From Escherichia coli (GTDB taxonomy: Bacteria; Pseudomonadota; Gammaproteobacteria; Enterobacterales; Enterobacteriaceae), in NCBI RefSeq assembly GCF_003018255.1, contig NZ_CP027440.1: DNA of 64,000 nucleotides; one strand, given 5' to 3'. The translations under genes and the position numbers were made by a program. The notes under the pieces were generated by a model that was not told the origin of the DNA, ran no database searches, and was given only the letters and a program-made list of their open reading frames with translations. Of this stretch, positions 2,649 through 63,744 are shown piece by piece (the first letter of the stretch is position 1; each line of letters opens with the position of its first letter).

Positions 2649-3610
2649 GCGGCGCTCGATTACACACGCTGCTGCCTGAATTAACCTCGCGTCAGCCAGT
2701 TATGGTGATTGGCGCGGCGGTCATTGATGTGATCGCCGACGCTTATGCCCTCCCCTGGCGTGGGTGCGATATCGAACTGAAACAGCAGAGCGTTAACGTT
2801 GGCGGCTGTGCACTGAATATTGCCGTGGCATTAAAGCGCCTCGGCATCGAAGCGGGTAATGCCTTGCCGCTCGGTCAGGGGGTGTGGGCGGAGATTATTC
2901 GCAACCGGATGGCAAAAGAGGACTTAATCAGCCTGATCGATAACGCCGAAGGTGATAACGGCTGGTGTCTGGCGCTGGTTGAGCCTGATGGCGAACGCAC
3001 TTTTATGTCATTCAGCGGTGTGGAAAATCAGTGGAATCGCCAGTGGCTGGCGCGATTAACCGTTGCGCCTGGCAGCCTGCTCTATTTTTCCGGTTATCAA
3101 CTGGCCTCGCCCTGCGGCGAATTGTTAGTGGAATGGCTGGAAAAGCTGCAAGACGTGACGCCGTTTATCGATTTTGGCCCACGTATTGGCGATATCCCGG
3201 ATGCATTACTGGCGCGGATCATGGCCTGTCGACCTTTAGTGTCACTCAATCGTCAAGAGGCTGAGATTGCCGCCGAACGTTTTGCTTTATCCGCAGAGAT
3301 AACAACACTTGGCAAGCAATGGCAGGAGAAATTTGCCGCGCCGTTGATCGTTCGTCTCGATAAAGAGGGCGCATGGTATTTCAGCAACGACGCTTCTGGC
3401 TGCATTCCGGCATTTCCAACGCAAGTTGTAGACACCATTGGGGCGGGCGACAGTCATGCCGGTGGCGTACTTGCCGGGCTGGCCTCTGGTCTGCCACTGG
3501 CGGATGCCGTATTACTGGGCAATGCAGTGGCGTCGTGGGTTGTCGGGCATCGGGGCGGTGATTGTGCGCCAACGCGCGAGGAACTACTCCTCGCACACAA
3601 AAACGTATAG
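2645..3610 (+). CDS. yegV: PfkB/ribokinase-family sugar or nucleoside kinase
   Basis: 321-aa ORF with the PfkB-type motif DTIGAGDSHAGG near the C-terminus; 4-nt overlap with the yegU stop. Confidence 0.8.
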   Translation: MSGARLHTLLPELTSRQPVMVIGAAVIDVIADAYALPWRGCDIELKQQSVNVGGCALNIAVALKRLGIEAGNALPLGQGVWAEIIRNRMAKEDLISLIDNAEGDNGWCLALVEPDGERTFMSFSGVENQWNRQWLARLTVAPGSLLYFSGYQLASPCGELLVEWLEKLQDVTPFIDFGPRIGDIPDALLARIMACRPLVSLNRQEAEIAAERFALSAEITTLGKQWQEKFAAPLIVRLDKEGAWYFSNDASGCIPAFPTQVVDTIGAGDSHAGGVLAGLASGLPLADAVLLGNAVASWVVGHRGGDCAPTREELLLAHKNV

Positions 3611-7428: not shown

Positions 7429-7465
7429 GAATCAGATTGCCGAATTAATACTAAGAATTATTATC

Positions 7466-8290
7466 ATGACCGAATTTACAACACTTCTTCAGCAAGGAAA
7501 CGCCTGGTTCTTCATCCCCAGCGCCATCTTACTTGGTGCGCTTCATGGCCTGGAACCGGGGCACTCAAAAACGATGATGGCGGCGTTTATCATCGCCATC
7601 AAAGGCACCATTAAACAGGCGGTGATGCTCGGACTGGCAGCAACTATTTCGCATACCGCAGTGGTCTGGTTAATTGCCTTTGGCGGGATGGTGATCAGCA
7701 AACGCTTTACTGCTCAATCAGCAGAACCGTGGCTCCAGTTGATTTCCGCAGTGATCATTATTAGCACCGCGTTCTGGATGTTCTGGCGTACCTGGCGCGG
7801 CGAACGCAACTGGCTGGAGAATATGCACGAGCATGATCATGAGCATCATCACCACGATCACGAAGATCACCACGACCATGGACATCATCACCATCACGAA
7901 CATGGCGAGTATCAGGATGCCCATGCACGAGCCCATGCCAATGACATTAAACGACGCTTTGATGGTAGAGAGGTCACCAACTGGCAAATTTTGCTATTTG
8001 GCTTAACCGGTGGCCTTATCCCCTGCCCGGCAGCAATTACCGTGCTGTTGATTTGCATTCAGTTGAAAGCCCTGACACTGGGCGCAACACTGGTCGTCAG
8101 TTTCAGCCTCGGCCTGGCGTTAACGCTTGTCACCGTAGGCGTTGGCGCAGCAATCAGCGTTCAGCAGGTCGCAAAACGCTGGAGCGGATTTAACACTCTC
8201 GCTAAACGCGCTCCCTATTTTTCCAGTCTGTTGATTGGCTTAGTTGGTGTGTATATGGGCGTACATGGCTTCATGGGCATAATGCGATAA
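7466..8290 (+). CDS. rcnA: Nickel/cobalt efflux permease
   Basis: 274-aa membrane protein with a His/Asp/Glu-rich loop (HEHDHEHHHHDHEDHHDHGHHHHHEHGE). Confidence 0.9.
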   Translation: MTEFTTLLQQGNAWFFIPSAILLGALHGLEPGHSKTMMAAFIIAIKGTIKQAVMLGLAATISHTAVVWLIAFGGMVISKRFTAQSAEPWLQLISAVIIISTAFWMFWRTWRGERNWLENMHEHDHEHHHHDHEDHHDHGHHHHHEHGEYQDAHARAHANDIKRRFDGREVTNWQILLFGLTGGLIPCPAAITVLLICIQLKALTLGATLVVSFSLGLALTLVTVGVGAAISVQQVAKRWSGFNTLAKRAPYFSSLLIGLVGVYMGVHGFMGIMR

Positions 8291-60191: not shown

Positions 60192-62187
<1,996 letters not shown>

Positions 62188-62344
62188 TATTTTCTCTTTT
62201 CTGTTAATTATTGAGAATAATTATTACTTCACTCAATAAGCTGCGGATATAACATTCTGAACCGCAGCTATTTGTGAATCCTTTCACAGTTTAAATTTCC
62301 CCACGCGCATAGCCTTAATATCAGCACGCAATATTTATACTCTA

Positions 62345-62475
62345 AATAATTCGAGTTGCAGGAAGGCGACAAGTGAGTGAGTCCCCAGGAGCTTACATAA
62401 GTAAGTGACTGGGGTGAGCGAACGCAGACGCAGCACATGCAACTTGAAGTATGACGAGTATATTTAGCGTTCGCC
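62345..62475. repeat. ERIC/IRU enterobacterial repetitive intergenic consensus element
   Basis: Contains aagtaagtgactggggtgagcg (ERIC2 primer sequence) and gtgagtccccaggagcttacat (near-match to the complement of ERIC1R). Confidence 0.8.
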
Positions 62476-62505
62476 TTAATTACTCATAGCATTAAGGAAG
62501 ATCAC

Positions 62506-63744
62506 ATGCCGCAACAAAATTATCTGGATGAACTCACTCCGGCTTTTACACCGTTACTGGCGATTAAAGAAGCCTCTCGCTGTTTATTATGCCATGACGC
62601 CCCCTGTAGTCAGGCTTGCCCGGCACAGACCGATCCGGGGAAATTTATTCGCTCAATCTACTTTCGTAATTTTAAAGGCGCTGCCGAGACAATTCGTGAA
62701 AATAATGCCCTCGGTGCCGTTTGTGCCAGAGTGTGCCCGACGGAGAAATTATGCCAAAGCGGTTGTACCCGTGCCGGTGTTGATACTCCCATTGATATCG
62801 GTCGCTTACAGCGTTTTGTTACTGATTTTGAACAACAAACTGGGATGGAAATTTATCAGCCCGGTACTAAAACGCTCGGCAAAGTCGCCATTATTGGCGC
62901 GGGTCCTGCCGGATTGCAGGCCAGTGTGACACTGACAAACCAGGGTTATGACGTCACGATCTATGAGAAAGAAGCACAACCCGGTGGCTGGTTGCGTAAC
63001 GGCATTCCGCAATTCCGGTTACCGCAATCAGTACTGGATGCAGAAATCGCCCGTATTGAAAAAATGGGCGTGACCATTAAATGCAATAACGAAATCGGTA
63101 ACACACTCACCCTGGAGCAGCTGAAAGCGGAAAACCGCGCGGTACTGGTCACTGTGGGGTTATCGAGCGGTTCGGGGCTACCACTGTTTGAGCATAGCGA
63201 TGTTGAGATTGCCGTCGACTTCTTGCAACGTGCACGACAGGCGCAAGGCGATATCAGCATTCCACAAAGCGCATTAATTATCGGCGGCGGTGATGTCGCG
63301 ATGGACGTAGCCAGCACGCTGAAAGTTCTCGGCTGTCAGGCAGTAACTTGCGTAGCGCGTGAAGAGTTAGATGAGTTTCCGGCAAGCGAAAAAGAGTTTG
63401 CCAGCGCCCGGGAGCTGGGCGTTTCGATCATCGATGGATTCACGCCAGTAGCTGTGGAAGGCAATAAAGTCACGTTTAAGCATGTACGGTTACCGGGCGA
63501 ACTGACGATGGCGGCAGATAAAATTATTCTCGCCGTCGGTCAGCATGCCAGACTGGATGCCTTTGCGGAGTTAGAGCCGCAGCGTAACACCATCAAAACA
63601 CAAAATTACCAGACCCGCGACCCGCAAGTCTTTGCTGCTGGCGATATTGTTGAGGGTGACAAAACCGTGGTTTATGCCGTGAAAACCGGGAAAGAAGCCG
63701 CTGAGGCGATTCATCACTATTTAGAGGGAGCTTGCTCATGTTAA
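62506..63744 (+). CDS. preT: NAD-dependent dihydropyrimidine dehydrogenase subunit PreT
   Basis: 412-aa ORF from the track; N-terminal 4Fe-4S cysteine motifs ([29 protein letters not shown]) and an FAD/NAD Rossmann motif ([14 protein letters not shown]). Printed numbering places the ATG 1 nt earlier than the track start. Confidence 0.9.

Follow-up and report, generated by a model that had tools for sequence, protein, structure and literature searches.

A full-length ERIC element in the yeiS-preT spacer of Escherichia coli: a presence/absence polymorphism at the implied start of the preTA operon

ERIC elements have been known as repeats since 1990-91, and duplication of a TA dinucleotide is regarded as a hallmark of the family (PMC2229807 Table 1). 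For the ERICs of Yersinia it has been proposed, as relayed in reviews (PMC2229807, PMC3184786 and PMC10969869), that the corresponding RNA hairpins modulate mRNA decay via RNase E, in that an RNase E site is unmasked and upstream transcripts are destabilised in an orientation-dependent manner. For E. coli, a 2024 review (PMC10969869) refers to 14 ERIC loci absent from K-12 and previously catalogued in other strains, and the copy described here is probably one of them. The preTA operon, by which gut E. coli reduces uracil and inactivates 5-fluorouracil, was studied in the K-12-derived strains MG1655 and BW25113 (bioRxiv 10.1101/820084), which carry an ERIC-less allele. The present work concerns an ERIC copy located between yeiS and preT in a 64,000-nt stretch of the E. 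coli contig NZ_CP027440.1 (assembly GCF_003018255.1); this whole stretch is referred to as the window, and coordinates apply to it unless another sequence is named.

A first-pass annotation of the window had reported an ERIC element in this spacer, and the element proved to be real. The complement of primer ERIC1R (GTGAATCCCCAGGAGCTTACAT) matches positions 62377-62398 at 21 of 22 nucleotides (one mismatch) and primer ERIC2 matches the directly adjoining positions 62399-62420 at 22 of 22 (no mismatch), each being the sole match in the 64 kb, and no match was returned in 100 dinucleotide-preserving shuffles. A repeat finder identified terminal inverted repeats with 25-nt arms that are 80% complementary. 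Comparison copies were pulled from metagenome contigs with the ERIC2 22-mer, and among the 43 short-form copies with distinct flanks thus obtained, 41 are exactly 127 bp long and have identical ends, TATAC(C/T)C...GAC(G/A)GGTATA, outside of which the flanks vary by locus. The window copy aligns without gaps to 48 other copies over 127 of 127 positions, with a mean column identity of 91%. Alignment with empty sites, which read ...GCAATATT-TA-TTTAGCG... where the filled allele reads ...GCAATATT-TA-[123 nt]-TA-TTTAGCG..., gives a net gain of 125 nt including the duplicated TA. Because the boundaries are set by the terminal repeats, the empty-site alignments and the independent 127-bp copies, the true span of the element is 62336-62462 on the + strand, or 127 bp when both flanking TA copies are counted. 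The interval originally assigned to it, 62345-62475, therefore lies at the correct site with an incorrect span, starting 9 nt inside the element and ending 13 nt past it, and the description of the copy as near-full-length has to be replaced, as it is full length and shares both size and ends with the independent copies. The parts of the element are as follows.

62336-62462, + strand: full-length ERIC/IRU element, delimited by primer matches, terminal repeats, empty-site alignments and independent copies
62336-62360, + strand: left terminal inverted repeat TATACTCTAAATAATTCGAGTTGCA, beginning with one of the two target TA copies (62336-62337)
62377-62420, + strand: conserved ERIC core (ERIC1R complement plus ERIC2), from primer matches and repeat finder
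62383-62396 and 62401-62414, + strand: central inverted repeat of the ERIC core, from the repeat finder
62438-62462, + strand: right terminal inverted repeat TGCAACTTGAAGTATGACGAGTATA, ending in the other target TA copy (62461-62462)

The core, the length and ends, the terminal repeats with their hairpin and the TA duplication are all present, and the element has every sequence characteristic by which the ERIC/IRU family is recognised; it is an ordinary instance of a kind already known, and the copy adds nothing new in itself. Its position is intergenic, between the open reading frames of yeiS (61948-62187) and preT (62506-63744), and the gene names given in the first-pass annotation agree with RefSeq, which annotates yeiS (DUF2542) and preT on either side of the ERIC in a genome that shows no difference from the window across 813 nt. 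Transcription of the element is deduced from the CRP promoter located upstream and from K-12 start data (see below).

The ERIC copies that were compared split into an E. coli type (TATACTC...GAGTATA, core ...GAACGCAGACGCAGCACATG) and a general enterobacterial type (TATACCC...GGGTATA, core ...GAGGAAAGCCAACGCACATG), and the end difference between these subfamilies is a compensatory pair (columns 6/122; window 62341/62457). Copies of the E. coli type at several distinct loci are nearly identical to each other, which points to recent spread or homogenisation. Three metagenome contigs (L048, L050 and L119) combine the left flank of one ERIC locus, for example that of the pgk side, with the right flank of another, and look like assembly chimeras across the repeat.

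A sister copy located between pgk and fbaA (L025 1501-1641) differs from the window copy at 3 of 127 positions and is the best match in genomes without the yeiS-preT ERIC. It has the same orientation and lies approximately 26 nt upstream of fbaA, after pgk on the same strand. The genes epd, pgk and fbaA form a single, highly expressed operon; provided that this is so, the orientation of the sister copy would be compatible with strong downstream expression. A literature search on the pgk-fbaA ERIC and RNase E returned nothing relevant. Both copies have a left flank of 13-14 nt in common, AGCACGCAAT(A/T)TTT (window 62323-62335, L025 approximately 1487-1500), which suggests gene conversion between them, or a duplication that carried the flank along. 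An element reaching these 13-14 nt further to the left was considered and discarded: in 59 metagenome stretches the left flanks have nothing in common beyond the TATAC end, except where the same locus recurs, and the flank is therefore not part of the family. The same left flank is retained in the empty allele of the ECA64/O157 type, and this retention of a pgk-fbaA-like flank would make that allele a precise excision.

Comparison with strains lacking the ERIC copy, which the first-pass annotation had proposed as a check, is afforded by K-12 itself, which is without the element. The yeiS-preT spacer measures 193 nt when empty (K-12 MG1655, C600, BL21(DE3), O157:H7 and ECA64), 318 nt in the window and 396 nt in a long form found in, for example, strain Ryan-0026. 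In this long form a 78-nt insert (CAAATCCGCATGGAGCGGATTTGAACGCTGCCTGCAGCGGCCCCATAAGGGGTGAGGCCCATGGATGGGCCGAATAAC; L002 1975-2052 in Ryan-0026) follows GTGAGCGA, at a position equivalent to that after window 62421, and folds as four small hairpins inside the ERIC loop. Similar inserts are found in ERICs elsewhere, at approximately 94% identity over the insert and the right-hand part of the ERIC. When presence was called in genomes covering at least 80% of a query of which the ERIC makes up 39% of the length, the element was found at this site in 2197 of 5426 complete E. coli genomes (40%), and 232 of these carriers have the long form. One carrier, strain JNE23-011, matches the window exactly over the 813 nt compared (61948-62760). 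Evenly spaced rows of the ranking indicate that the empty site on a flank haplotype of the window type accounts for approximately 30% of genomes, and that a divergent haplotype of the K-12 type, always empty in the rows sampled, accounts for about a quarter. The window differs from K-12 most strongly in the yeiS-preT spacer, where 62198-62347 holds 20 mismatches in 150 nt compared with 0-9 in stretches of that size from the flanking genes, so that, judged by sequence comparison, the preTA regulatory region exists in E. coli as two distinct haplotypes.

The same site was inspected in yeiS loci from one genome per species by means of BLAST and alignment. Escherichia albertii (L009 2896-3022) carries a full-length ERIC at the corresponding position, oriented alike and approximately 79% identical to the window copy, its ends being of the general type (ACCC...GGGT) as opposed to those of the E. 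coli copy (ACTC...GAGT, the E. coli type). The strain named 'E. coli E69', a separate species representative, retains an internally deleted ERIC remnant of approximately 70 nt (L011, about 2891-2959), and Escherichia sp. MOD1-EC7003 (L006, about 2889-3061) has the long form with 32 nt of the core deleted. The yeiS-preT site holds no ERIC in E. whittamii, Escherichia sp. E1V33 and strain SCPM-O-B-8794, nor in twelve Citrobacter-like loci and S. arizonae. As divergent, deleted and absent alleles thus occur across Escherichia lineages, the alignments indicate that the site has long been occupied and that the element is free to decay there. The empty haplotype of the K-12 type is almost unchanged in E. 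whittamii and Escherichia sp. E1V33. The alleles of this spacer look like an old polymorphism common to several species, or like the outcome of interspecies spacer exchange. All known ERIC variation (empty, short, long with the 78-nt insert, and internally deleted) is represented at this one site, which makes it a convenient locus for the study of ERIC gain, loss and homogenisation.

The regulatory sequences surrounding the element were delineated by phylogenetic footprinting across Escherichia, Citrobacter and S. arizonae, and are listed here in order of position.

62212-62226, + strand: Fur-box-like 7-1-7 motif TGAGAATAATTATTA, with 2 mismatches to TGATAATnATTATCA, conserved
62239-62269, + strand: inverted repeat or hairpin AGCTGCGG-N15-CCGCAGCT, from repeat finder and fold
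62273-62288, + strand: CRP box TGTGAATCCTTTCACA with a perfect TGTGA-N6-TCACA, upstream of the ERIC, invariant and listed in RegulonDB and genomic SELEX
62310-62315, + strand: candidate -10 hexamer TAGCCT, 29.5 nt from the CRP centre, in class II geometry
62330-62338, + strand: alternative -10 AATATT (62330-62335) with the equivalent of the implied K-12 start (62338), obtained arithmetically from the RegulonDB value of -57.5
62474-62497, + strand: inverted repeat CCTTAAT-N10-ATTAAGG, its 3' arm overlapping AAGGAAG, the Shine-Dalgarno sequence of preT, whose ATG is at 62506

The CRP core at 62273-62288 is the only perfect one in the window, where 0.07 would be expected by chance, and is invariant in the three groups compared. 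The gene yeiT (preT) is a CRP target in RegulonDB, and binding has been confirmed via genomic SELEX (PMC3105977); the RegulonDB table reproduced in the supplement of that paper gives the yeiTA site as TGTGAATCTTTTCACA, with CRP as activator and its centre at -57.5. On this value, the K-12 preTA start would be the A at 2,233,989 of NC_000913.3, 44 nt before the ATG, and its window equivalent would be 62338, inside the TA/TA junction of the ERIC; the point of insertion is thus the start site that RegulonDB implies for preTA in K-12. The footprinting offers a second placement. In all three groups compared, an unvarying TAG(C/G)CT follows the CRP box at a distance of 21 nt and would correspond to a class II promoter with CRP at -41.5, transcription starting near 62322 and the ERIC beginning at +15. 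A distance of -57.5 is non-canonical for CRP. Between TAG(C/G)CT and the Shine-Dalgarno repeat there is a stretch which varies in length and sequence, and it is this stretch that holds the ERIC.

With regard to Fur, three matches to the 7-1-7 motif at no more than 2 mismatches occur in the window versus 0.24 expected; the other two (7452-7466 and 7752-7766, 2 mismatches apiece) are separated by 300 nt. Under anaerobic conditions in MG1655, Fur is bound at the promoter region of preT and increases expression of preTA, and a similar Fur-dependent trend was seen with a PpreT-lacZ fusion (PMC4676285). As to mapped 5' ends, PMC2760140 includes yeiT among the genes start-mapped by directed 5'-end mapping, and the supplement of PMC3415461 contains a 2-read start 228 nt upstream of the preT ATG, inside yeiS, together with a start belonging to yeiS itself (13 reads, 27 nt upstream of the yeiS ATG). 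The accessible supplements of PMC4782308 (Cappable-seq) contain no matching coordinates for the preT region, the accessible 3'-end tables of Adams 2021 have no entries for preT, yeiS or sanA, and a literature search for papers naming both yeiS and preT found none. The ERIC would be transcribed under each of the start readings (62338, approximately 62322, or inside yeiS), because all of these lie at or upstream of the element. It is therefore likely, given the upstream promoter and the K-12 start data, that the ERIC is part of the preT 5' UTR, and the corresponding proposal of the first-pass annotation receives indirect support from the upstream position of the CRP box and the coincidence of the RegulonDB-implied start with the insertion TA.

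That annotation had further placed the ERIC between a yeiS terminator-like hairpin, to which it was said to be adjacent, and the preT ribosome binding site. The hairpin is present, its arms AGCTGCGG (62239-62246) and CCGCAGCT (62262-62269) forming a perfect 8-bp stem around a 15-nt loop (predicted energy -14.9 kcal/mol, z = -3.6), and it is located between the Fur-like box and the CRP box. The proposed arrangement is thus correct as far as the hairpin goes and incomplete as to what precedes the ERIC, where the CRP box and the Fur-like box are found as well; adjacency can be retained only in a loose sense, because the hairpin is 66 nt from the ERIC with the CRP box between them. The likeness to a terminator is weak: a stem exists, yet the sequence that follows is AUUUGUG with no U-run, the loop is 15 nt long, the terminator scan gave no call, and the structure lies inside the regulatory region upstream of preTA; the hairpin does not qualify as an intrinsic terminator. 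In E. albertii the hairpin carries one compensatory double change (GCTGTGG/CCACAGC), and in Ryan-0026 a one-sided change was observed. Its sequence is not conserved in Citrobacter, where another inverted repeat, ATGCTG-N5-CAGCAT, is found. Elsewhere in the window, a REP-type palindrome (GCCGGACAAGGCGTTCACGCCGCATCCGGC) occupies 61077-61114 on the - strand between cdd and sanA, with a sub-threshold Rfam match to naRNA4 (31.4 bits versus 59.5).

On the preT-sense strand the ERIC is predicted to fold at -54.2 kcal/mol (z = -7.3), compared with -39.7 kcal/mol on the opposite strand. When the fold of the window copy was counted on 49 ERIC copies, 92% of cells were paired and 10 pairs showed double changes; none of 500 shuffles reached this pairing and covariation, and slid partners were paired in 29-37%, these counts being subject to the structure having been taken from the window copy and to columns 65-86 having been fixed by the way in which the copies were retrieved. 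Columns 6/122 serve as an example, with C-G in 26 copies, U-A in 18 and A-U in 3. The flanks ACGC/GCGU extend the ERIC stem, so that almost no single-stranded 5' tail would be left under either start. Three versions of the preT leader were folded (with the ERIC, without it as in ECA64, and with the long form), and in these the element folds as a self-contained unit: the predicted unpaired probability of the Shine-Dalgarno sequence is 0.294 in all three, and that of the AUG is 0.744 with the ERIC, 0.74 without it and 0.744 with the long form. Masking or unmasking of the preT ribosome binding site by the ERIC was therefore dismissed, as the site is predicted to be equally accessible whether or not the element is there. 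A small open reading frame in the long leader (ATG at 62451, 12 codons, TAG at 62487-62489) was likewise rejected, as a usable Shine-Dalgarno sequence is lacking and the frame lies hidden within the ERIC stem. The inverted repeat CCTTAAT/ATTAAGG has invariant arms and a variable loop in Escherichia, Citrobacter and S. arizonae; its predicted fold is weak (-5.3 kcal/mol, z = -0.65) and its predicted pairing is the same when the ERIC is present, and it may serve as a hairpin controlling translation or as a binding site for a protein.

Our preferred explanation, held with moderate confidence, is that the ERIC resides in the preTA leader and chiefly has a modest influence on the fate of the mRNA. 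The element, a miniature inverted-repeat transposable element, would have inserted at a TA in the variable stretch just past the -10 region of the preTA promoter, which is activated by CRP and modulated by Fur. Since the insertion leaves intact both the promoter elements upstream and the Shine-Dalgarno hairpin downstream, the preTA mRNA is expected to start at or just before the ERIC, that is, in carriers, either within the opening bases of the element, by the RegulonDB geometry, or, by the class II geometry, approximately 15 nt ahead of it. The leader would then lengthen from approximately 44-60 nt to approximately 170-185 nt and open with a long, self-contained stem-loop. It is known from mRNA decay in E. 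coli that a 5'-terminal stem-loop hinders the entry of 5'-end-dependent RNase E and of RppH, which favours stabilisation, and a long imperfect duplex could attract RNase III. In the preTA leader the 5'-proximal stem-loop should correspondingly hinder 5'-end-dependent RNase E, and the long duplex could be a substrate for RNase III; thermodynamic folds carry no information on RNase cleavage. By analogy with the Yersinia ERICs, the element may affect the stability of the preT mRNA, as the first-pass annotation had suggested. It does not appear to be a required regulator and looks like a tolerated selfish insertion, because empty, short, long and decayed alleles coexist, and the population data argue against an essential role, because there are two common alleles and the element decays or grows at the site.

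These same data are what make a neutral passenger, transcribed in the leader with no measurable effect on preTA mRNA or protein, a possibility to be taken seriously, if a somewhat unlikely one. Both alleles are common (approximately 40% filled and 60% empty), the element decays or grows in place (the remnant of L011, the core deletion of L006 and the 78-nt insert of L002), the host stretch varies between genera and is the most divergent part of the region between the window and K-12, and the ribosome binding site is predicted to be equally accessible with and without the ERIC. Against neutrality, a stem-loop of -54 kcal/mol situated 0-15 nt from a 5' end usually changes decay or processing, as is generally known, and reviews report effects on transcripts by ERICs and other MITEs.

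An action at the level of the promoter, in which the ERIC, situated between the -10 region and the start as placed in K-12, takes over from the discriminator and the initially transcribed sequence and brings in a new TATACT, thereby altering the place or strength of initiation, is considered doubtful. The RegulonDB-implied start does coincide with the insertion TA, and the junction, which reads AATATTTATACTC, acquires through the insertion a -10-like TATACT at 62336-62341. However, within one haplotype filled and empty alleles do not differ in sequence as far as the duplicated TA, which is included, initiation from TATACT would by arithmetic put CRP at approximately -67.5, on the wrong helical face, and the class II geometry conserved across genera sets the whole promoter upstream of the ERIC. 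Still less probable is that the element acts chiefly on yeiS, as a 3'-UTR or intercistronic hairpin which, upon read-through from the yeiS promoter, stabilises or ends the yeiS mRNA in the way of REP and ERIC elements at other sites. Such read-through is plausible considering that the hairpin after yeiS is non-canonical, yeiS has a start site of its own with 13 reads (PMC3415461), and co-transcription of ERICs with upstream genes is described in reviews (PMC2229807), but the ERIC lies 148 nt past the yeiS stop codon and beyond the preTA CRP box, and K-12 and approximately 60% of strains do without it. A role of the ERIC as a terminator was rejected, as the base of its stem is A/U-rich, no U-run follows and the terminator scan was negative. 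A preT transcript that begins past the ERIC, leaving the element as untranscribed spacer DNA, is very improbable, since only 43 nt separate the end of the ERIC from the preT ATG, 24 of them belonging to the conserved repeat that overlaps the Shine-Dalgarno sequence, the promoter scan found no sigma-70-like site on the + strand there, and the CRP box would sit more than 190 nt from such a start. A promoter within or downstream of the ERIC was also rejected, as the scan returned no sigma-70-like site on the + strand and, by eye, TTGAAG (62444-62449) is without a -10 partner at 16-18 nt.

If the ERIC indeed lies in the preTA leader and alters the fate of the mRNA, approximately 40% of E. coli strains would have a preTA mRNA that opens in a 125-nt stem-loop, and strains could differ in the inactivation of 5-fluorouracil. 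We regard it as rather unlikely that the hairpin changes mRNA half-life or initiation several-fold and so constitutes a natural, genotypable determinant of fluoropyrimidine inactivation by individual strains. Of some interest is the occurrence of a common presence/absence polymorphism at the implied start of the operon that inactivates 5-fluorouracil. As K-12 is without the ERIC copy, promoter and start data obtained for preTA in K-12 do not describe approximately 40% of E. coli strains; an effect of the polymorphism, if true, would have been overlooked because the cited work on preTA used ERIC-less strains derived from K-12.

When set beside known systems, the yeiS-preT copy is a member of the ERIC/IRU/RU-1 family (Sharples & Lloyd 1990; Hulton et al. 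1991; Wilson & Sharp 2006, referenced in PMC3184786 and PMC2229807), which it resembles in its 127 bp, core, ends, TA termini and hairpin, and in its intergenic position within a region that is probably transcribed. Rfam has no ERIC family as such, and the only model that aligns with the element is RF02818 V_AS5 (Vibrio RNA AS5), which matches window 62335-62458 at 46.7 bits against a gathering threshold of 96, a sub-threshold score that does not make the element a member; the alignment nevertheless runs from end to end (model 1-129) with the same stem architecture as the ERIC, which suggests that RF02818 was itself built on ERIC-like repeats of Vibrio. The Correia/NEMIS elements of Neisseria are likewise MITEs with a TA duplication that lie near promoters or 5' UTRs, are transcribed and alter expression, but they belong to an unrelated sequence family, and the documented promoter and IHF motifs and the cutting by RNase III are features of Correia elements. 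The ERICs of Yersinia (De Gregorio et al. 2005, as described in the reviews PMC2229807, PMC3184786 and PMC10969869) are of the same family, with the same TA duplication, and are co-transcribed with their neighbours. According to these reviews, the Yersinia copies lie near the 3' ends of genes and affect upstream transcripts, whereas the yeiS-preT ERIC lies at the 5' end of a leader. The pgk-fbaA copy resembles the latter in its orientation to the downstream gene and in its position just upstream of a start codon. To our knowledge, experimental work on ERIC RNA is confined to Yersinia. The pgk-fbaA copy, as is generally known for that gene cluster, lies inside a polycistronic operon, whereas the yeiS-preT copy is located at a promoter.
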